Shown one piece after another: positions 1,771 to 35,795 of a stretch of 64,000 nucleotides of DNA. Location: assembly GCA_024653325.1 (NCBI GenBank), contig JANLFX010000001.1, positions 10,228-74,227 on the forward strand, in the 5' to 3' direction. The notes under the pieces were generated by a model, which was not told where the DNA came from, did no database searches, and saw only the letters and a program-made list of their open reading frames with translations. The DNA comes from Anaerolineae bacterium. Lineage in GTDB: Bacteria; Chloroflexota; Anaerolineae; JACIWR01. The stretch's first letter is position 1. Every line of letters starts with the position of its first letter. Made by a program: the position numbers and the translations under genes.

Positions 1771-4650
1771 TCAAGAAAACTGTTGGTCAATGGTTTTCTT
1801 CCCCAAATCTACCAACTCTTGCACGGCGGCGATCATCATCTCCCCGGTTTGCACCGACGGCGGCGGGGCCGTTTCTCCCTCGGCAGGCGGGGCAGTGGGC
1901 TCGCGGACGCGGGCCAGGCGGGCCGCCAACTCGTCGGGCAAATGACCACCTTCTACCAATTCGGCCTGCACCAGGCGTGGTGCGGGCAGTTCCGGACCTG
2001 GTTTATGCTCCTTGAGCACTGCCAGATAGGAGGACAGGGCCCATCCCAACGCTTCGCGGATGGGGCGCAACGTCTCTTCCGGGAAGCCGCCTCCCAACAC
2101 CACGCGGGCCAGTTGCAGGCGTCTGGTCGCCGTTTCCAGACCTTCCTGGGCCAGGTGTAGTCGCTTTTGACGCTTATCTTCTACGGGAGGGCGGGGTGGG
2201 GCGGCAGTCGGTGCACGGTAGAGCTCCTCGCTTTCGGGCGTGGGCCGTTCGATCAACCCACCGGTCAGGGCTACCAATGCGCGGTAACTTTCCTGTTCCA
2301 TCAGGTGTAAAGTAGGCGCGGGCGGTGCCGGAGCAAATAACTCGTTGAGCATCTGCTCTATTTGGGGCCTGAGGGCAGCGGGCTCTTTGTCCACCACGAC
2401 CAGGACGTTGTTATCGCTGGCCGCGCCGGGTAATGGCGGGGCCCGGCGCACTAACACAATGCGTTCGGGGAAGCGAGCCACCAGCATATCGGTGAAGGTG
2501 CGCAAGGTAGGTTTGGGCGGGGGCAATTCGATTGCCTCCGGGACACGTTTCACCTCCTTTTTCGTCGGTGTCAGGTCAATGACTGGCTTGACCTCCGCCG
2601 GCACTTCCATCATCTCGCTCAATTGTTTGAGCAGACCCTGACCGGTATCGTGGAAGCTGATCTCTGCCGGCGCTTCTTCTTCACCAAACACGCCAGCGAA
2701 TACGTTACGTTTGGCAGCCAGGGAATCAAGAATGCGCTCCTCAATGGTGTCCTGGGCGATGAGGTTGATCACATTGACCGCGTGTCGCTGTCCGTGGCGG
2801 TGGGCGCGGGCAATGCGCTGCTCGAGCACTGCCGGATTCCAGGGCAGGTCCAGGTTGACCACCAGGCTGGCCGCTTGCAGGTTGAGACCCACCCCACCAG
2901 CATCGGTGGAGAGGAACACGCGGCAATCGGGGTCGTCGAAGAAGCGGGCAATCAATTCACCGCGCTTGTGGCTGGGCACCTGACCGGTCAGCTTGACGTA
3001 ACCCAGACCCAGGCGTGAAAGTACAGGCTCCGTCAACTCCAACATGCGTGACCACTGGCTGAAGACAATGGCCTTGTGGCCGTTGTCGGCAACCTCGTCG
3101 GTCATGATGTCGCGGAATTCCAGGAGTTTGGGAGCCGTGCGTTCGCGGTCTTTGGGCGGCAGGTCGGGGTCGTGTAAAGCCAGGGCATTGCAGATCAGGC
3201 GCATTTTGATCAGCGATTTGAGCAGCAAATCGTGTTCTTTGGGGGTGAGAGGGCGTTTCTGGGCAATGACCAGCAGACGGGCGACGATAGACTGATATTC
3301 CGAGTAGGCGTTCCACTGTTCGCGGGTCATTTCTACGAAGAAATGGTTGTCAATGCGCTCCGGCAGGTCCTCCAGCACCTGATCGCGGGTGCGGCGCAGC
3401 ACGTAGGGGGCAATGCGGGCGCGCAATTCATCCAGGTTCTTATAGCCCAGCACACGATAGGTTTTGTTCGGGCGCAGTTCGAGCTGGAAGTAACGCTCGT
3501 TGAACAGCCACAGCGGACCCAGGACGCACTGGTCTATGAACTGGAAGACGCTGTATAACTCGTCCAGGCGGTTTTCCAGGGGCGTGCCGGTAAGGACGAA
3601 GGCGTAGCGACTGCGCAGGCGTTTGACCGAATCGGCGGTTTTCGTGCGCCAGTTCTTGATGCGCTGTGCCTCGTCGAGGATGATCACGTCCGGGTTCATC
3701 CGCTCGAAGACCGTCTCGTCGCGCCGCACCAGCTCGTAGTTGACGATGGTGAAGAAGGTGGGCTGGCCGTAGAGCTCTTGGCGCTGCTTGCTCGATCCCT
3801 CGATGACGGTGACCGGCAGGTCGGTGAAACGGCGGACCTCCCGCGCCCACTGGTGTTTCAGCGAGGCCGGGCAGATGATCAACGCGCTATCCACGTCGCC
3901 CAGTTCGTGTAGTAAGGCACAGGCGGCGATGGCCTGCACCGTCTTGCCCAGGCCCATGTCGTCGGCCAGCATGGCTCGCCGGCCAAAGGCCAGGTGTAGC
4001 GCGCCTTTCTCCTGATAAGGGTAAAGCCGGGCATCACGCAATACATTCAGAGAACGAGTACCCTGATTTATTTGGGCCAGAAACCACTCTTGTTGACGGC
4101 GGGTAGTCTCCAGATCGCGCAGCAGGTCCAGGTGTTGGCGCACTTCTTCGTCCACAATCACGATGGCCTGTTGTTCTGAAGGGAGAGCGGCGATGTTTTC
4201 CAGCAGACGGGGAAGCGTTTCCAGTGGGACACCGCGCAATACCCCGTCGGCGTCAAAGTATTGCTCCAGCAAGGAACGCAGGGCTTTGTCGTCTGGGAGG
4301 GGCAGGGTAACGCGCACCGTGATCTCCTCGCCGTAGTGCAAGTAGATAGAAGTGACCGGTGGCTTTTGGGCTTCCAGTTTCTCCCATTCGTCGCCTGCTG
4401 CTTCGTGTAGATAATAGAGCACTCCCTCGATGTGCTTACAAGTGCCCACTAGATTGGTGCGGTAATCAGGACAGGTACAGGAATTCAAGAGTTCGGTGAG
4501 GGAGCGGATTTGCACGCGATAGGTGCGGCCGGAGACTGAGGTCACCTCGAAAGTGCTGAATACAGGATGCGCGCCCAGATTGGAGATACGCACAATCTCT
4601 TCTTGTGCTCGCTGGCGGCGGCGCTTGATTTGTTCTTCGGCCATGGCCAT
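1771..4650 (-). CDS. SNF2/RAD54-family DNA helicase with N-terminal SWIM zinc finger
   Basis: 959-aa ORF. SWIM motif CTCPDY...TCKHIEGVLYY. Helicase motifs GLGKT, DEAQRIKN, LTGTPLENRLDELYS, and a C-terminal HELICc region (QRIARAHRHGQ). Confidence 0.85.
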   Translation of the reverse strand: MAMAEEQIKRRRQRAQEEIVRISNLGAHPVFSTFEVTSVSGRTYRVQIRSLTELLNSCTCPDYRTNLVGTCKHIEGVLYYLHEAAGDEWEKLEAQKPPVTSIYLHYGEEITVRVTLPLPDDKALRSLLEQYFDADGVLRGVPLETLPRLLENIAALPSEQQAIVIVDEEVRQHLDLLRDLETTRRQQEWFLAQINQGTRSLNVLRDARLYPYQEKGALHLAFGRRAMLADDMGLGKTVQAIAACALLHELGDVDSALIICPASLKHQWAREVRRFTDLPVTVIEGSSKQRQELYGQPTFFTIVNYELVRRDETVFERMNPDVIILDEAQRIKNWRTKTADSVKRLRSRYAFVLTGTPLENRLDELYSVFQFIDQCVLGPLWLFNERYFQLELRPNKTYRVLGYKNLDELRARIAPYVLRRTRDQVLEDLPERIDNHFFVEMTREQWNAYSEYQSIVARLLVIAQKRPLTPKEHDLLLKSLIKMRLICNALALHDPDLPPKDRERTAPKLLEFRDIMTDEVADNGHKAIVFSQWSRMLELTEPVLSRLGLGYVKLTGQVPSHKRGELIARFFDDPDCRVFLSTDAGGVGLNLQAASLVVNLDLPWNPAVLEQRIARAHRHGQRHAVNVINLIAQDTIEERILDSLAAKRNVFAGVFGEEEAPAEISFHDTGQGLLKQLSEMMEVPAEVKPVIDLTPTKKEVKRVPEAIELPPPKPTLRTFTDMLVARFPERIVLVRRAPPLPGAASDNNVLVVVDKEPAALRPQIEQMLNELFAPAPPAPTLHLMEQESYRALVALTGGLIERPTPESEELYRAPTAAPPRPPVEDKRQKRLHLAQEGLETATRRLQLARVVLGGGFPEETLRPIREALGWALSSYLAVLKEHKPGPELPAPRLVQAELVEGGHLPDELAARLARVREPTAPPAEGETAPPPSVQTGEMMIAAVQELVDLGKKTIDQQFS

Positions 4651-28002: not shown

Positions 28003-29577
28003 TCAGTCTGTGCTGGCGTTAGCTGTATGGAATAGGGCGTAACCGCCGCCGCGTTTGGTATGCAGAAACATTGGGCGTTTGGGATCGCGTTCGATCTTCT
28101 TGCGTAATCGGGAAACCAGGGAGTCAATGGCTTCATCTCCTACGTATTTTTCCTGGGGGTAGATGGCTTCGTAGATTTCCTGGCGGCTGCGAAAGACCCC
28201 TGGGGTCCGGTAGAGAAAGTGGAGGAAATCGAATTCCCGTTCGGTGAGGCCCTCGACCGTGCTTTCGCCGACGTAGATGCGGCGGTGTGCTTCATCTACG
28301 CGCAGGGGGGGAATCAGCCGCCCGAAACGTTTCTCGAATTCGTTTTCTATCTCAGGGAGCAGCCGATAGTTCAGCTTACTCCCCGGGTCTGGATTCTGCT
28401 GGCAGTGATGCTCCAGCAACAGGTGACCTAGCTTGAGCATGTTACGCGGTGAACCGTAGGCTCGCTCGACAAGCCACTGATCGAATTTGCCCCGACTCTC
28501 GGTGTCGGCAAGCTGGTCCATACTCTGGATCTTGCCTGCGCTGAACGCCATCAAGCGGGCCTGCAGCAGGTTTGTCAGGCCCTCGTCTGACCATTCGATG
28601 CACCAACTGGAGATCAGATCGGTGCGGAATAGATGTTGCTCTCGAAATGGTGAATACAGCACCTGGGGTAAGAAGAATTTGAAGGCCAATCCCGCCTGAG
28701 ATCCTGGGGCATCATTGGTATGCCGATGAAGCACGCGCAACTCGCGGGTGAGAGGACTCAGTACTTCGGTCAGAAAATCTGGGTTTTCGGCAGTCAGGTG
28801 GTGTTCGTCAATGCCATCGAGGAGCACGTACACGGCCCGCGCGCCGATGGCCTGGGCCAGTTCGGTCAGTTCATTGAGAAGTAAATGGGTAGGATCCGTG
28901 CTGGACGGGGATAGGGGGGCGGTATCCGCCAGGGTGAGCCATACTGCCATCTGGGTATCGGTTGGCACGTTCCCTGGTGGCAGAATCTCTCGCAGTTGCC
29001 TTTCCCGGATGGCCTGTTCGATGATTGTGATGTCCGCCTGAGTGTCTCGAGGTAACGCTCCCAGGGCGCGCAGGTGGCGCAATACCTGATAAGGGGAGAA
29101 CAGCGATGGATAGTAGTCCTGGACCAAGGCGCGCAGCAGGGCACGCTGCTCGATGGGCATCGCATAAAAGCGAACCGGTTCCTTGGTGATGGTGGTCCAG
29201 ATAGCGGCCAGGCCCGCACGTAAAATTTGCTCGAGGTGATGATGTAGTGAGACCGTTCCTGATAATTGGTCCAGCCAGCCGAAGTCAGTGTATGGCACGG
29301 CCAGAACCTCAGCAGACAGGTCATTGGGCAGGCATTCGCGCTGGATCATGAGTCGGCAGGCGGTTTTTCCTGCGCCACGGGCGGCGAAGACGAAGTTGGT
29401 GCGCGGATCTGCCGGGTCACCTACGATTTGATCAAAAAATGGAGGGCGAATGAAATAGGTTTTGAGTTCGGTTTCCCGCTCAGCCTCCACGGTCGCGAAG
29501 GGGTTTTGCCCGTTATGAAACCCTTGCTGGGCCAGCCATTTTTGCAGAGGACTTATAACTTTTGCTTGTCTGTCCAC
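28003..29577 (-). CDS. P-loop NTPase fused to a C-terminal OmpR/PhoB-type winged-helix DNA-binding domain
   Basis: 524 aa with a GTG start and AGGAGG SD. Walker A FAARGAGKTACRLM and Walker B VYVLLDGIDE. The C-terminal trans_reg_C-like segment is REFDFLHFLYRTPGVFRSRQEIYEAIY...GGGYALF. Confidence 0.65.
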   Translation of the reverse strand: MDRQAKVISPLQKWLAQQGFHNGQNPFATVEAERETELKTYFIRPPFFDQIVGDPADPRTNFVFAARGAGKTACRLMIQRECLPNDLSAEVLAVPYTDFGWLDQLSGTVSLHHHLEQILRAGLAAIWTTITKEPVRFYAMPIEQRALLRALVQDYYPSLFSPYQVLRHLRALGALPRDTQADITIIEQAIRERQLREILPPGNVPTDTQMAVWLTLADTAPLSPSSTDPTHLLLNELTELAQAIGARAVYVLLDGIDEHHLTAENPDFLTEVLSPLTRELRVLHRHTNDAPGSQAGLAFKFFLPQVLYSPFREQHLFRTDLISSWCIEWSDEGLTNLLQARLMAFSAGKIQSMDQLADTESRGKFDQWLVERAYGSPRNMLKLGHLLLEHHCQQNPDPGSKLNYRLLPEIENEFEKRFGRLIPPLRVDEAHRRIYVGESTVEGLTEREFDFLHFLYRTPGVFRSRQEIYEAIYPQEKYVGDEAIDSLVSRLRKKIERDPKRPMFLHTKRGGGYALFHTANASTD

Positions 29578-29661: not shown

Positions 29662-29686
29662 CTGGTTGCTGGTTACTGGTTGCTGG
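29662..29686. repeat. Tandem heptamer (CTGGTTG) x3.5 upstream of yhhQ
   Basis: The same heptamer array occurs in-frame inside the AddB-like CDS at about 781-805, where it encodes ISNQQPV. Confidence 0.8.
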
Positions 29687-29724
29687 AATTCTCCTTGACC
29701 AGCGTTTGGTTTTGGAGTAGAATA

Positions 29725-30441
29725 ATGACCATGAGTCAGGCAGAATCTTTTAGGTATCGTTATTTCGATCTGATCATGGCCCTGTTCGTTGCCGTGTTAT
29801 TGATCAGTAATATCGCTTCGGCGGCCAAGATTGTGAACCTGGGCTTGCCGGTACTTACTTTCGACGCTGGCACACTGCTTTTCCCGGTGAGCTACGTCTT
29901 TGGTGATGTGCTGGTCGAGGTGTACGGCTATCGCCATTCACGGCGAGTGATCTGGATGGGCTTTTTCTGCGCAGCCCTGCTCAGTCTGACGCTGGCCGTG
30001 GTACGCTGGTTGCCCGGTGACCCGCAGTGGATCAGCCAGGTGGGCACGGAGAAATTTGACGCAGTGCTGGGTACGCTGGCCAGCGGGCGGATTATCGTGG
30101 CCAGCCTGGTTGGTTATTTCATGGGAGAGTTTTCCAATGCGGTGATCATGGCCCGGATGAAGGTTCTCACGCAAGGCCGCTGGCTGTGGTTGCGTACTAT
30201 CAGCAGCACGCTGGTGGGCGAGGGGGTGGATACGCTGCTATTTGTGTGTATCGCTTTCCTCGGCGTATGGTCACCCGCGCTCCTGGTCAGCATTATCGTC
30301 TCCAACTACGTGTTCAAATGCGGTCTGGAAGCGGCGGTCACTCCGCTGACCTATCGGGTGGTTAATTTGCTGAAACGAGTTGAAGGGGTAGACGTGTACG
30401 ATGTGCACGTGGATTTCAATCCGTTCAGGTTGAGCGTGTGA
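29725..30441 (+). CDS. yhhQ: Queuosine-precursor transporter, YhhQ/COG1738 (DUF165) family
   Basis: ATG 29725 lies 7 nt after GGAG. Polytopic protein with the family motif FPVSYVFGDVLVEVYGY. Confidence 0.7.
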   Translation: MTMSQAESFRYRYFDLIMALFVAVLLISNIASAAKIVNLGLPVLTFDAGTLLFPVSYVFGDVLVEVYGYRHSRRVIWMGFFCAALLSLTLAVVRWLPGDPQWISQVGTEKFDAVLGTLASGRIIVASLVGYFMGEFSNAVIMARMKVLTQGRWLWLRTISSTLVGEGVDTLLFVCIAFLGVWSPALLVSIIVSNYVFKCGLEAAVTPLTYRVVNLLKRVEGVDVYDVHVDFNPFRLSV

Positions 30442-31431: not shown

Positions 31432-31460
31432 TTGACAAAGTGGTTGAAAGGGTGTATACT
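31432..31460 (+). promoter_or_regulatory. Consensus sigma70 promoter (TTGACA, 17 nt spacer, TATACT) for the fumarate hydratase operon
   Basis: -35 at 31432-31437 and -10 at 31455-31460, giving an about 160-nt leader before ATG 31628. Confidence 0.55.
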
Positions 31461-31498
31461 ACGCCCCGCTAACCGAAGCCTCAAAGGAGAGACGGTGC

Positions 31499-31585
31499 AT
31501 GGTGTTTGGTTCGCCCGAGACACTGGAGAGTCTAAGCGGGAACAACGGGTTGAGGGTAATGGGACATCTAAAGGCATGGTTTTAA
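31499..31585 (+). CDS. Candidate 28-aa leader peptide (MVFGSPETLESLSGNNGLRVMGHLKAWF) in the fumA leader
   Basis: Strong SD AAGGAGAG 7-8 nt before ATG 31499. The stop TAA at 31583-31585 lies in the loop of the downstream terminator hairpin. Confidence 0.35.
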   Translation: MVFGSPETLESLSGNNGLRVMGHLKAWF

Positions 31586-31610
31586 GCCTGTGTGGTGTCC
31601 CATTTTTCTT
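31558..31610 (+). terminator. Leader terminator/attenuator hairpin (AATGGGACA...TGTCCCATT followed by TTTTCTTT)
   Basis: About 10-bp stem with one mismatch and a U-tract, located between the promoter and the fumA start. Confidence 0.5.
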
Positions 31611-31627
31611 TCGATTGAGGAGGGGCC

Positions 31628-32476
31628 ATGGTGCGGGAGGTCAAGACAGAGATAATCACCAGCGAGGTTGCTCGACTGTGTGTCGAGGCTTGTTATTATT
31701 TGGGCGATGATGTGCTGGCAGCGCTGAAGAAGGCGCGGGCGAACGAGCCCTCACCGGTGGGCCAGGCCGTGCTCGATCAAATCCTGCAGAACGCGGAGAT
31801 CGCCAGTCGCGGAGAGCTGCCCCTGTGTCAGGACACGGGATTGACGGTGGTGTTCCTGGAGCTGGGCCAGGAGGTGCACATCGTCGGCGGCAGCCTTTAT
31901 GAGGCTATCCAGGAAGGAGTGCGCAAAGGGTACAGGGAAGGCTATCTGCGCAAATCGGTGGTGGAAAAACCCTTTTCAGCGCGGATCAACACCGGCGACA
32001 ACACTCCGGCTGTGATCCATACCGAGATTGTGCCCGGCGATCGTCTGAAAATTACCGTCGCTCCGAAGGGGGGCGGCAGCGAGAACATGAGCTATCTCAG
32101 GATGTTCTCCCCGGCGGCCGGGCGGCAAGGAATCATTGATTGGGTGGTCGAATGTGTGGATAAGTCCGGCGCTAATCCCTGTCCGCCGATCATCGTCGGT
32201 GTGGGCATCGGCGGAACGATTGAGCAGACGACATTGATCGCCAAAAAGGCTCTGCTACGTCCCGTGGGACAACCCCATCCCGACCCGGAAGTGGCGGAGA
32301 TGGAGGCGGAGATTTTGGAGCGGGTGAACAAGCTGGGCATCGGGCCGCAGGGCCTGGGTGGGCGCACGACGGCTCTGGCGGTGCATGTGGAGACGTTTCC
32401 CTGTCACATCGCCAGTATGCCCGCGGCGGTGAACATTCAATGCCACAGCGCCCGGCACAAAGAGGTGGTGATTTAG
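31628..32476 (+). CDS. Class I (Fe-S) fumarate hydratase, alpha subunit (FumA/TtdA N-terminal-type)
   Basis: Motifs CQDTGLTVVFLELGQ, KGGGSENMS and GVGIGGT. Confidence 0.8.
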   Translation: MVREVKTEIITSEVARLCVEACYYLGDDVLAALKKARANEPSPVGQAVLDQILQNAEIASRGELPLCQDTGLTVVFLELGQEVHIVGGSLYEAIQEGVRKGYREGYLRKSVVEKPFSARINTGDNTPAVIHTEIVPGDRLKITVAPKGGGSENMSYLRMFSPAAGRQGIIDWVVECVDKSGANPCPPIIVGVGIGGTIEQTTLIAKKALLRPVGQPHPDPEVAEMEAEILERVNKLGIGPQGLGGRTTALAVHVETFPCHIASMPAAVNIQCHSARHKEVVI

Positions 32477-32485
32477 GAGGAGACG

Positions 32486-33046
32486 ATGGCTGCGATTGAG
32501 ATTACGACTCCGTTGACCGACGAAGTAATCGAGCAACTCCATGCTGGCGACAATGTGTTGATCACAGGCACCATCTACGTCGGGCGCGACGCGGCGCATA
32601 AGCGTCTGGTGGCCGCGCTGGACGCCGGTGAGGAATTGCCCTTCGACCCACGAGGCCAGATCATCTACTACATGGGACCGTCACCGGCTCGTCCGGGGCG
32701 GCCTATCGGTTCTGCCGGACCGACGACCAGTTATCGTATGGACCCCTACGCACCGCGCCTGTTGGAAGTCGGTCTCAAGGGGATGATCGGCAAGGGGAAC
32801 CGCTCTCAGCCCGTGCGAGAGGCGATGCAGAAGTACAAGGCGGTGTATTTTGCGGCTATCGGCGGGGCTGCGGCGCTCATCGCCAATTCTATCAAGGAGG
32901 CCGAGGTCATCGCGTATCCGGACCTGGGGGCGGAGGCACTGCGTCGCCTGCGGGTAGAGGATTTCCCGGCGGTGGTGGTCAATGATATTTATGGCAACGA
33001 CGCTTACGAGATGGGGAAGGCGCAGTACAGAGAAGTGGATGGTTAG
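32486..33046 (+). CDS. Class I fumarate hydratase, beta subunit (FumB/TtdB C-terminal-type)
   Basis: 186 aa with NVLITGTIYVGRDAAHKRL and a swivel beta/beta/alpha domain. Separated from the alpha gene by 9 nt. Confidence 0.8.
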   Translation: MAAIEITTPLTDEVIEQLHAGDNVLITGTIYVGRDAAHKRLVAALDAGEELPFDPRGQIIYYMGPSPARPGRPIGSAGPTTSYRMDPYAPRLLEVGLKGMIGKGNRSQPVREAMQKYKAVYFAAIGGAAALIANSIKEAEVIAYPDLGAEALRRLRVEDFPAVVVNDIYGNDAYEMGKAQYREVDG

Positions 33047-33079: not shown

Positions 33080-33487
33080 ATGAGAGTTAAACTTTCGGCG
33101 ATGAGGGTGCGCAATGATCTGGTGCGCCGCATCGAGGAACTCAGCGGGCAGGACTTGCTGGCCTGTTATCAGTGCGGGAAGTGCTCGGCGGGATGCCCGG
33201 CAGCCTTCGCCATGGACCTGCTGCCCAGCCAGGTGATCCGCCTGGTGCAGTTGGGTCTGGTGGAAGAGGTGTTGAACGCGAAGACGCCCTGGTTTTGCGC
33301 GGCTTGCCAGACCTGTTACGCGCGTTGTCCCAAGGGGGTGGACCTCTCGCGCATCATGGAGGCCATCCGGGAGATAGCTTTGCAGGAGCGCGGCGATTAC
33401 CTGGTCATCGAGGAAATCCCCGCCGAGGAGCTGGCCGAGTTCCCGCAACTAGCCTTTATCGGCGGCTTCCGCAAGTACACGGCGTAG
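33080..33487 (+). CDS. hdrC: Heterodisulfide reductase subunit C-like (two 4Fe-4S binding motifs)
   Basis: CYQCGKCSAGCP and CAACQTCYARCP. Confidence 0.8.
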   Translation: MRVKLSAMRVRNDLVRRIEELSGQDLLACYQCGKCSAGCPAAFAMDLLPSQVIRLVQLGLVEEVLNAKTPWFCAACQTCYARCPKGVDLSRIMEAIREIALQERGDYLVIEEIPAEELAEFPQLAFIGGFRKYTA

Positions 33488-33590
33488 GGGTTTCAAGTTC
33501 AAGGTTTCAGGTTTCAAGTTCGCTACCAAACCTGACCTGTAACTTGAAACCTATAACTTGAAACCTGAAACTATAACTAACATGGGTGGA
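33488..33590. repeat. Palindromic repetitive element (GGTTTCAAGTT / AACTTGAAACC units) between hdrC and hdrB
   Basis: The left half GGTTTCAAGTTCAAGGTTTCAGGTTTCAAGTT mirrors the right half AACTTGAAACCTATAACTTGAAACCTGAAAC. Its k-mers (AACCTGAAAC, CAGGTT, CAAGTT) are shared with the in-frame insert at 36484-36614. Confidence 0.7.
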
Positions 33591-33598
33591 GCGTATCA

Positions 33599-34462
33599 AT
33601 GAGGATAGCTTATTTCCCAGGTTGTACACTGAATACCACGGCTAAGGGTTTCGATAACGCCCTGCGGGCTTCGTTTGCTGCTCTGGGGGCGGAGTTGGTG
33701 GAGCTGCCGGAGTGGAACTGCTGTGGGGCGACGTTTCCCTTGCTGGTGGATAACATGCTCGATCTGGTCGCGCCGACGCGGGTGTTGCTGGCCGCGCAAA
33801 GGCAGGGTGACCGGCTGGCCGTGGCCTGCACCATGTGCTACAACGTCATCCGCCGCACCAACAACCGCCTCCGGTCCGATGCCGACGCTCTGGAGAAACT
33901 CAACTACTTCATCGAAGCCGAATATCGCGGCGGGGTCGAGGTGCTGGACGTGTTGCAAATCCTGCGCGACGACGTGGGATTTGAAGCGGTCCAGGCGGCG
34001 GTGAAGAAGCCGCTGACCGGGCTCAAAGTGGCCGCCTACTACGGATGTATGGTTTTGCGCCCGCCAACCGAGGTGGCCTACGACGACCCCGAGAATCCCC
34101 ACGCTCTCGATGATCTGCTGCGGGCTTTGGGCGCGGAGCCGGTGGAGTGGCCGCACAAGGCCGAGTGTTGCGGCGCTTATCTGGCGGTGAAGTCGAAGGA
34201 GGCCACAGCGGAGATGAGTTACCGCATCCTCTCCTCGGCGCAACGGGCCGGGGCGCAGGCCGTGGTCACCAATTGCCCGCTGTGCCAGTTCAACCTGGAC
34301 AAGCAGCAGCTCGACATGGGGCGCCGGCACGGCGGGTATCAGCCCGTTCCGGTGTTGTATTTCTCTCAGTTGCTGGGCGTCGCCCTGGGCCTGGATACGG
34401 CGGATTTTGGCTGGGAGCGGCATTATGTGGATGTCCGTCCCCTGTTGGAGAGCCTGGGGTAG
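33599..34462 (+). CDS. hdrB: Heterodisulfide reductase subunit B-like (two CCG domains)
   Basis: EWNCCGATFPL and KAECCGAYLAV, with the conserved Cys spacing of CCG domains. Confidence 0.85.
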   Translation: MRIAYFPGCTLNTTAKGFDNALRASFAALGAELVELPEWNCCGATFPLLVDNMLDLVAPTRVLLAAQRQGDRLAVACTMCYNVIRRTNNRLRSDADALEKLNYFIEAEYRGGVEVLDVLQILRDDVGFEAVQAAVKKPLTGLKVAAYYGCMVLRPPTEVAYDDPENPHALDDLLRALGAEPVEWPHKAECCGAYLAVKSKEATAEMSYRILSSAQRAGAQAVVTNCPLCQFNLDKQQLDMGRRHGGYQPVPVLYFSQLLGVALGLDTADFGWERHYVDVRPLLESLG

Positions 34463-34469
34463 GTGAAAA

Positions 34470-35795
34470 ATGGCTATTGCTCCGATCCAACGGGTACTGA
34501 TCATCGGTGCGGGCATCGCCGGCATGCAGGCCGCGCTGGACATCGCCAACGCCGGCTACGAGGTGGTGCTGGTCGAGCGTGAGCCGTCCATCGGCGGGCG
34601 CATGGCCCAGCTTTCGGAGACCTTTCCCACCCTGGACTGCGCGCAGTGCATCCTGACCCCGCGCACGGTCGAGGTGGGGCATCACGAGCACATCCGCTTG
34701 CGGACATATTCCGAAGTGGAGGCCGTTGAGGGCCAGTTGGGCGACTTCCGGGTGCGCATCCGTCGCCGCGCGGCCTACGTGAACTGGGAGGTATGCACCG
34801 GCTGCGGGCTTTGCCAGGAAAAGTGCCCGAAGAAGGTCATCTCCGATTTCGAGCGAGGTATTGGCCCGCGCAAGGCTATTTACACCTTGTCGCCCCAGGC
34901 AGTGCCCAACAAGCCGGTGATTGACCGCCAGAGTTGCATCTACTTCGAGCGCGGCAAATGCCGGGCCTGCGAGAAGTTCTGTCCCACGGGAGCCATTGAT
35001 TTCGAGCAGGAGGACGCCATCATCGAGGAACGGGTGGGGGCCATCATCGTGGCCACCGGCTACGACCTGTATCCGCTGTCGTTGCTGGGTGAGTACGGCT
35101 ACGGTGAGGTGCCCGACGTGATTGATAGCCTGGCCTTCGAGCGACTGCTTTCGGCCTCCGGGCCGACAGCGGGCCAGGTACGGCGTCCCTCCGACGGCGC
35201 AGAGCCGAAAGAGGTGGTGTTTATCCAGTGCGCCGGCTCGCGGGATCCCGAACTGCACAAGCCCTACTGCTCGAAAATCTGTTGCATGTACACGGCCAAG
35301 CACGCCATGCTCTACAAGCACAAAGTGCACGACGGCCAGGCCTACGTCTTCTACATTGACATCCGTTCCGCGGGCAAGCGCTACGAGGAATTCGTGCAGC
35401 GGGCGATGGAGGAAGAGCGCGTGCTGTACGTGCGCGGCAAGGTGAGCCGCGTCTTCCGCGAGAACGGCAAGGTCATGGTCTGGGGTACGGATACCCTCAG
35501 CGGGCAAAATGTGGAGGTGGCCGCCGATCTGGTAGTCCTGGCCCCGGCCATGGTGCCGAAAGCGGGATCGGACGTGGTGGCGGAGTTGCTGGACCTGGCG
35601 ACTGACGAACACGGCTGGTTCACCGCAGCGGAGGCGAACCTCCAGCCGGTGGAAACAAAACGAGCGGGAGTGTTCCTGGCCGGGGCAGCGGTGGGGCCCA
35701 TGGACATCCCGGAGACGGTGGCCCAGGCCAGTGGCGCGGCGGCGCAGGTGCTCAGCCTGTTCGCGCAGTGGGCGGAAAGGAACGGGAATGCGTAA
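34470..35795 (+). CDS. hdrA: HdrA-like FAD oxidoreductase with inserted ferredoxin domain but no N-terminal or C-terminal cluster domains
   Basis: GAGIAGMQAALDIANAGYEVVLVE is the FAD site. The inserted 2x[4Fe-4S] ferredoxin is CTGCGLCQEKCP...CRACEKFCP. CAGSRD...YCSKICCMY also present. Confidence 0.8.
   Translation: MAIAPIQRVLIIGAGIAGMQAALDIANAGYEVVLVEREPSIGGRMAQLSETFPTLDCAQCILTPRTVEVGHHEHIRLRTYSEVEAVEGQLGDFRVRIRRRAAYVNWEVCTGCGLCQEKCPKKVISDFERGIGPRKAIYTLSPQAVPNKPVIDRQSCIYFERGKCRACEKFCPTGAIDFEQEDAIIEERVGAIIVATGYDLYPLSLLGEYGYGEVPDVIDSLAFERLLSASGPTAGQVRRPSDGAEPKEVVFIQCAGSRDPELHKPYCSKICCMYTAKHAMLYKHKVHDGQAYVFYIDIRSAGKRYEEFVQRAMEEERVLYVRGKVSRVFRENGKVMVWGTDTLSGQNVEVAADLVVLAPAMVPKAGSDVVAELLDLATDEHGWFTAAEANLQPVETKRAGVFLAGAAVGPMDIPETVAQASGAAAQVLSLFAQWAERNGNA

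Follow-up and report, generated by a model that had tools for sequence, protein, structure and literature searches.

The class I, Fe-S type fumarase operon (fumAB) of this Anaerolineae bacterium is preceded by a leader of about 160 nt with its own promoter, a short open reading frame (ORF) and a terminator hairpin, which raises the question of whether the leader controls the operon and by what means. An earlier note on the window, that is, the whole stretch of 64,000 nucleotides analysed here, had offered two readings of this arrangement: ribosome-mediated attenuation or a riboswitch-type expression platform. The features on which the analysis rests are given below, with their positions in the window; clades A, B and C are groups of related loci described in the second section.

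31432-31437, + strand: -35 hexamer TTGACA, kept in all clade A relatives
31455-31460, + strand: -10 hexamer TATACT, within GTGTATACT, common to clade A and clade B leaders
31466-31474, + strand: predicted transcript start (about 31466-31468, from promoter spacing) and 5′-terminal segment GCUAACC (31468-31474)
31478-31493, + strand: 5′ hairpin GCCUC-AAAGGA-GAGAC; the SD-like AAGGAG spans its hexaloop and 3′ strand (covariation, 41 leaders)
31499-31585, + strand: putative leader ORF of 28 codons, ATG to TAA (MVFGSPETLESLSGNNGLRVMGHLKAWF), with the ATG at one alignment column in 10/10 clade A leaders
31558-31604, + strand: predicted terminator hairpin with an 11-bp outer stem, 31558-31568 with 31594-31604 (fold energy)
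31572-31589, + strand: inner hairpin AGGC/GCCU (31572-31575 with 31586-31589), enclosed by the outer stem
31602-31612, + strand: U-tract AUUUUUCUUUC, kept in the clade A alignment
31617-31623, + strand: fumA ribosome-binding site GAGGAGG, kept as GAGGAGG in relatives
31628-32476, + strand: fumarate hydratase alpha, class I, Fe-S type (NF004885, 416 bits, cut-off 276)
32486-33046, + strand: fumarate hydratase beta (NF005310, 288 bits, cut-off 238)

Promoter, terminator and operon

The promoter is a near-consensus site, located where the earlier note had placed TTGACA-17-TATACT (31432-31460). A sequence scan gives it a 17-nt spacer and 11 of 12 consensus matches, and it ranks top among the four promoter-like sites found in 4 kb, where 1.3 are expected. 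From the promoter spacing, we infer a transcript start near 31467. The gene upstream of the leader in the window is era, and neither the sequence nor a terminator scan revealed a terminator in the interval between era and the promoter. Between the -10 hexamer and the predicted start lies a G+C-rich stretch (31461-31469), represented by ACGCCACGC in most clade A relatives. The ACGCCACGC stretch is complementary to GCGUGG of the terminator loop, and in L162 both partners have changed (AUCACGC with GCGUGAU); the window's own stretch has two mismatches to GCGUGG and may precede the transcript start.

The terminator hairpin is formed by the outer-stem arms AAUGGGACAUC (31558-31568) and GGUGUCCCAUU (31594-31604), with UUUUUCUUUC directly 3′ of it. 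Its predicted folding energy is -27.7 kcal/mol, compared with -13.9 ± 2.3 for shuffled sequences (z = -5.9), and none of 200 shuffles folded as well. As the earlier note described, the hairpin holds the stop codon of the upstream ORF in its loop and is followed by a U-tract. A simple terminator scan missed the hairpin solely because its loop exceeds 8 nt. The ORF itself is also as described, a 28-codon frame behind a strong ribosome-binding site: AAGGAG lies within AAGGAGAG at 31484-31491, the ATG at 31499 follows after 7 nt, and the TAA occupies 31583-31585. The inner hairpin of the terminator has this stop codon in its loop, 11 nt 5′ of the terminator 3′ arm.

Downstream, both fumarase subunits score above their NCBIfam cut-offs, in agreement with the class I Fe-S fumarase named in the earlier note. 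FumA homologues start with V/M-R-E (GTG/ATG-R-E; L169 has GTG GTG), and for this reason the fumA start is probably GTG 31631, 7 nt past GAGGAGG, and not ATG 31628. Three further genes lie on the same strand at 33080-35795, encoding an HdrC-like protein (135 aa), an HdrB/SdhE-like CCG-domain protein (287 aa) and an HdrA-like protein (441 aa). Such Hdr-like genes follow fumAB in close relatives too, and they may constitute a thiol- or menaquinol-linked fumarate reductase-type module under the control of the leader. On the other side of the locus, a 524-aa ORF at 28003-29577 (- strand) has a C-terminus that resembles the winged-helix DNA-binding domain of the OmpR/PhoB type. The gene at 29680-30441 (+ strand), Vut_1 and queuosine-precursor transporter-like, also precedes era in relatives.

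Spread of the leader among relatives

A FumA-alpha scan of genome and metagenome contigs yielded 160 loci, all from Chloroflexota-type MAGs or metagenome contigs, and exact-protein look-ups added ten further loci. Clade A comprises ten distinct sequences with FumA at least 88% identical: the window, L161, L081 (= L002), L083, L162, L166, L163, L164, L001 and L082. The earlier note had named conservation in relatives as a check on its proposal; promoter, leader and terminator are present in 10/10 clade A loci, which align over all three parts with a mean column identity of 82%. Terminator-like hairpins occur upstream of fumA in 11/11 loci with FumA at least 88% identical; the automatic count, which is too permissive and flags hairpins in upstream coding sequence, was used for this range only.

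Outside this range, the sequence of the leader changes rapidly. A blastn search with the leader against 80 loci gave matches only in the two nearest relatives, so that wider homology has to be read from the design and not from the sequence. A clade A covariance model matched the window with 151 bits, as a single copy in 64 kb, and found no clade B or clade C leader even at E ≤ 10. Clade B (FumA 80-87% identical, 14 distinct leaders) and clade C (FumA 69-75% identical, about 20 distinct leaders) have unalignable sequences and the same design, and L027, L036/L132 and L123 are outliers. The shared design opens with a near-consensus promoter containing GTGTATA(C/A)T. About 20 nt into the RNA comes an SD-like motif rich in purines, and after a variable middle part follows a terminator hairpin of 46-55 nt, whose outer stem (8-11 bp, G+C-rich) encloses an inner hairpin; a U-tract and then 20-35 nt lead up to the fumA start. 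Within the hairpin, the outer stem is 95% paired across clade A, and in clade C the inner stem shows covariation, with five double changes at each of two pairs (C-G/U-A and U-A/C-G). In clade B, the middle comes in two length classes, as judged by eye, that differ by a segment of about 27 nt; L084 and L093 are shorter by about another 57 nt. In L010 (= L089) and L017, an insertion of about 95-100 nt separates the terminator from the fumA ribosome-binding site (locus about 2885-2980). It forms a long hairpin of -33 to -42 kcal/mol bounded by GATCCAAA...TTTGGATC, and its interior is not the same in the two cases. In appearance it resembles a small mobile or palindromic element; an exact-repeat search did not report the insertion hairpin, whose exact arms are shorter than 9 nt.

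The position of the element bears on whether it regulates fumA at all. The gene upstream of the leader varies between era, the end of an ABC-ATPase-like ORF (presumably an ABC-type ATPase, as read by eye) and various others, which indicates that the leader belongs to fumA. Where fumA lies directly behind malate dehydrogenase or malic-enzyme genes, as in most Dehalococcoidia and some Anaerolineae, there is no leader; these upstream genes were named by eye from their C-termini, the sole family match being a PF00390 domain in one fused product, P0089. The locus L013 has kept a clade B-like promoter and lost the leader from just past the -10 hexamer to the terminator 3′ arm, a deletion that joins the promoter directly to the region of the fumA ribosome-binding site (locus about 2925-3000, some 70 nt upstream of fumA). 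Since L013 keeps the promoter without the leader, the promoter is that of fumA, with the leader as an insertion between the two.

These observations weigh against an absence of regulation, in which the terminator would simply be leaky, permitting era read-through or producing a stand-alone small RNA, or in which the RNA of about 140 nt would act in trans as a small RNA. A promoter and a terminator of its own would indeed delimit a discrete RNA of about 140 nt, and the era-to-promoter interval, free of a recognizable terminator, would admit read-through. Such a reading nonetheless leaves the element's occurrence only immediately 5′ of fumA, behind differing upstream genes, without explanation, as it does its single copy in the 64-kb window, the L013 deletion and the absence of the element behind mdh or malic-enzyme genes; we consider it improbable. 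The more specific case of an independent small-RNA gene was rejected, because the location is tied to fumA and L013 has the promoter without the RNA. Comparison across the loci thus indicates that the leader is a real regulatory element, of a design common to many uncultured Anaerolineae.

The 5′ hairpin and the leader ORF

A 34-nt module at the 5′ end could be aligned without gaps for 41 leaders of the three groups, and the all-group alignment was confined to this module. The 5-pair stem of the hairpin is paired in 87.8% of cells, compared with 42-67% when the partner strand is slid. Its third pair (pair 11-22) is always paired, occurring as UG in 19, CG in 11 and UA in 11 leaders; double changes are found at three pairs, and the covariation score was matched by 0/500 shuffles. 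The hexaloop has the consensus R-A-N-G-R-N (AAAGGA in the window), in which A2 and G4 are invariant, and together with the 3′ strand it makes an SD-like GGAG. In clade C, the 5′ 20 nt are nearly invariant, including bases 5′ of the SD. A plain ribosome-binding site needs no invariant bases at these positions, and the clade C invariance therefore counts against the interpretation of the module as the start of a translated leader ORF. A strong SD-like sequence near the 5′ end and far from the structural-gene start is also known from the STAB-SD 5′ mRNA stabilisers of Gram-positive bacteria (cryIIIA), which have no start codon after the SD; in contrast, most fumAB leaders have a start codon 8-9 nt on, and they end in a terminator.

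The position of this start codon is constrained. An ATG, GTG or TTG occurs at columns 29-32, that is, 8-9 nt past the 5′ hairpin stem, with fixed-position starts in 10/10 clade A leaders and in 7/7 clade B long forms (six aligned and L084), and an in-register GTG in 15/20 clade C leaders. The linkers before the start differ by group (...AGACGGUGC-AUG, ...AAGCCGUUG-AUG and ...AGGCCUUG-GUG). The clade B short forms have ATC (four) or ACC (one) 3-4 bases earlier, in frame with a downstream ATG. About 10 of some 42 leaders lack a canonical start. In about eight leaders, the hairpin and the terminator are retained although a canonical start is missing or the ORF is limited to 6 codons; these are L141, L023, L038, L042 and L152 in clade C, and the clade B short forms.

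The frame opened by the start codon was scored as open if it ran on to a point at most 14 nt before the terminator 5′ arm, from where a terminating ribosome could cover the arm, with the +1 and +2 frames as controls. The leader ORF is open in 21/22 clade A and B leaders, compared with 7/22 and 9/22 for the control frames, counts that are taken over related, non-independent sequences. By group, the frame is open in 10/10 clade A leaders (4 for +1 and 6 for +2), in 6/7 clade B long forms (3 and 0) and in 5/5 clade B short forms (0 and 3). In clade C, frame 0 is open in 14/15 leaders, against 11/15 for the +2 frame. Also in clade C, the motif UCACCACCCURCUGGG is read in differing frames in L130 and L137, and the GTG doubles as the 5′ arm of a candidate helix GUGAC/GUCAC that is 86% paired with one-sided changes only. 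Several clade A frames carry compensated frameshifts: L001 and L082 have -1 after the ATG and +1 24 nt later, so that part of the ORF is read in another frame, and L081 has +1 and -1, 17 nt apart. L084 appears, from a reading of the alignment by eye, to combine -1 with -56 indels.

The encoded peptide is not conserved. Over the three codon positions, the variable sites number 16, 14 and 20 in clade A and 15 at each position in clade B, the synonymous fraction amounts to 0.26-0.29 in the leader-ORF frame and 0.18-0.26 out of frame, and coding-potential tests in clades A and B detected no purifying selection on the leader peptide. Its length ranges from 18 codons (L163 and L164, with the stop directly before the terminator arm) to beyond the terminator (L166 and L003). 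The strong SD and ATG, together with the pattern M-V-[FL]-x-x-P...MGHL[KR]A common to the peptides of the window, L161, L081 and L162, could suggest a functional 28-aa protein. The shared C-terminus MGHL(K/R)A, however, is the terminator stem read as codons, and substitutions fall evenly over codon positions, with a synonymous fraction of 0.26 compared with 0.18 in other frames; with length and C-terminus varying from 18 to more than 30 codons and L001 and L082 partly in another frame, such a protein is hardly credible, and this reading was rejected for want of purifying selection on the peptide. The comparison of orthologous ORFs proposed in the earlier note thus had a divided outcome, in which position and openness are kept and peptide sequence is not. 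With the peptide unconstrained, the argument for the ORF depends on openness and start-codon position. Fast sequence turnover under a preserved design fits a leader peptide of irrelevant sequence. A start codon in place, an open frame and an irrelevant peptide together correspond to the ORF of an attenuator leader, which we infer to be translated.

No regulatory codon run was found in the leader ORFs inspected. One or two Asn codons (AAC/AAT) occupy codons 15-16 in 9/10 clade A ORFs (31541-31546 in the window), 13-18 nt 5′ of the terminator arm and far short of a regulatory run; a Gly-Asn pair (GGGAAY) turns up repeatedly in clade B, and some clade C ORFs have it too. These Asn codons may be a stalling site or a mere conserved purine patch. 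In the clade C loci L026 and L031 (= L142), the ORF crosses the terminator and its TGA overlaps the fumA GTG (GTGA), an overlap that would permit translational coupling.

Candidate switching mechanisms and their significance

Sensing by an aptamer was considered first among the possible mechanisms. A small-molecule riboswitch with an aptamer between the 5′ hairpin and the terminator would suit the succession of promoter, structured leader and terminator, which resembles an expression platform, as well as the metabolic operon downstream. Like transcriptional riboswitches, the fumAB leader has a terminator as a possible expression platform within a 5′ leader of about 160 nt. Unlike them, it has no conserved aptamer and turns over rapidly between close relatives. 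Rfam 15 gave no relevant match at E ≤ 10 in the window's leader region, in line with the earlier note, which had recognized no known aptamer; nothing relevant reached the gathering score in the whole window, and nothing was found at E ≤ 1 in six loci of other groups. Taken as a whole, the leader is no more stable than its shuffles (z about -1), and RNAalifold returned no supported helix for the leader middle in clades A and B, where registers shift or changes are one-sided. With no conserved aptamer, no Rfam match and a middle that tolerates indels of 27 nt and about 57 nt, a riboswitch is very unlikely, and the failure of the clade A covariance model to recover clades B and C points the same way. 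As regards the two original readings, the geometry of attenuation has held, being conserved among relatives, and the riboswitch platform has not.

Attenuators of the trpL, hisL, leuL, thrL and pheL type combine a regulatory codon run with mutually exclusive 1:2, 2:3 and 3:4 helices, and their read-through is set by the position of the ribosome. The fumAB leader resembles them in its promoter, SD, short ORF and terminator before the first structural gene, and differs in that the window's group has neither a codon run nor a conserved antiterminator. When the nascent RNA was folded with the 3′ arm left off, no common antiterminator partner emerged in clade A or clade B, and RNAduplex pairing of the 5′ 36 nt with the 5′ half of the terminator gave z of about 0 in these clades, with a candidate only in part of clade C. 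The alternative folds that the earlier note had envisaged, terminator versus antiterminator, were therefore predicted without yielding a consistent antiterminator in the window's group. Attenuation of the trp type was rejected on both counts, the antiterminator and the codon run.

Control of the terminator might instead lie with the RNA itself or with a trans-acting factor, the leader ORF being incidental. In the trans-acting version, the 5′ hexaloop hairpin would be the binding site of a protein or small RNA; in the other, the 5′ end would pair with the apical part of the terminator and thereby decide its folding. The predicted RNA begins, in all three groups, with bases complementary to this apical part, the inner hairpin. 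In clade C, the pairing of GUUAGCUU with GAGCUAAC reaches 85-90%, compared with 30-47% when slid, with one double change, and it extends into the terminator 5′ arm to give duplexes of -26 to -28 kcal/mol (L141, L029 and L130). In clade A, GCU[A/G]ACC pairs with GGU[U/C]..AGC, with pair 11-123 occurring as GC in 4, AU in 2 and GU in 2 leaders; in clade B, UUCAAGG pairs with CUUGAA. When these long-range pairings were compared with shuffles, 126/500 (clade A) and 366/500 (clade C) reached the observed paired fraction. A longest-complement test between the 5′ end and the terminator interior returned recurring sites, with per-sequence p mostly 0.01-0.5. The window bears the weakest version, and the pairing of the 5′ segment with the terminator loop in clade A is suggestive only.

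Further points in favour of such a switch are the conservation of the 5′ hairpin with its invariant loop A and G, the near-invariance of the clade C 5′ end outside the SD, and the leaders that retain hairpin and terminator without a usable ORF. The inner terminator hairpin speaks for it as well, since a plain terminator needs no inner hairpin and this one is kept and covaries. Against it stand the long-range pairings, which are not significant relative to shuffles, and the lack of a consistent antiterminator in clades A and B; in addition, the fixed start-codon position and the excess of open frames are left unexplained, and no candidate factor was identified. ANTAR antitermination, which uses two tandem hexaloop hairpins (A1, G4) with the second overlapping the terminator, differs from the single 5′ hexaloop hairpin seen here, which lies about 65 nt from the terminator and has invariant A2 and G4. 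On balance, switching at the RNA level or in trans is a possibility that we regard as rather unlikely. The stronger proposal, in which the 5′ hairpin and the complementarity between 5′ end and loop would form the core of a new RNA switch, responsive to a ligand or a protein, with the ORF as a by-product or auxiliary, appears quite doubtful. If true, such a switch would perhaps report the C4-dicarboxylate or Fe-S/redox state and control a central-metabolism enzyme of Chloroflexota.

A simpler model is provided by the pyrBI and rph-pyrE operons of E. coli, where attenuation is coupled to translation without an antiterminator: a trailing ribosome blocks the hairpin, and the peptide sequence is irrelevant. 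In the absence of both an antiterminator and a codon run, and with all conserved parts put to use, coupling of the pyrBI/pyrE type is the simplest model for the fumAB leader. According to this model, a sigma-70-type promoter would start the RNA near 31467, and the first 30 nt would fold into the hairpin that presents the SD, with the ATG 9 nt on opening the leader ORF. The ORF would then run into the long intrinsic terminator, 25-70 nt upstream of fumA. A ribosome close behind RNA polymerase would cover the 5′ arm and loop of the terminator as the 3′ arm emerges, so that the hairpin would fail to form and the polymerase would read into fumA. If the ORF were untranslated or the ribosome lagged, the hairpin would form and the transcript would end at about 31605-31612. 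Coupling of this kind would require no antiterminator. Its input could be exerted at initiation, for instance by making the SD on the 5′ hairpin more or less accessible, or during elongation.

The likeness to pyrBI lies in a leader ORF with its own SD that reads into a terminator just upstream of the structural genes. pyrBI senses UTP via U-rich pause sites upstream of its attenuator, and here the two systems differ, as no U-rich pause tract is evident in the fumAB leaders of the window's group: the sequence contains no clear pause site upstream of the hairpin, and U-runs before the hairpin are absent from clade A, clade B having GAUUUUCUAG-like tracts. Also unlike pyrBI, the fumAB leader carries its SD on a conserved 5′ hairpin, its terminator is an unusually long two-tier hairpin, and it precedes an operon for a hydratase of a TCA branch in Chloroflexota, where it is known from sequence alone. 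Our preferred reading, to which we give about an even chance, is that the fumAB leader is a translation-coupled transcription attenuator of the pyrBI/pyrE type.

Leader-ORF attenuators are textbook examples for the amino-acid and pyrimidine operons of Proteobacteria. To our knowledge, none is known for a fumarase operon or for Chloroflexota, and a full-text literature search found none described for either. By comparison of the loci analysed, the element is a cis-regulatory leader family specific to Anaerolineae fumAB operons, absent from Rfam and without description in the literature searched. At least 50 distinct leaders (10 in clade A, 14 in clade B, about 20 in clade C, and the outliers) provide a data set for an Rfam-type cis-regulatory entry. 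The Anaerolineae are abundant and barely cultured anaerobes. If confirmed, the attenuator would imply that they couple transcription and translation tightly enough for regulation, and it would mean an additional control point in the malate/fumarate branch of their TCA pathway.
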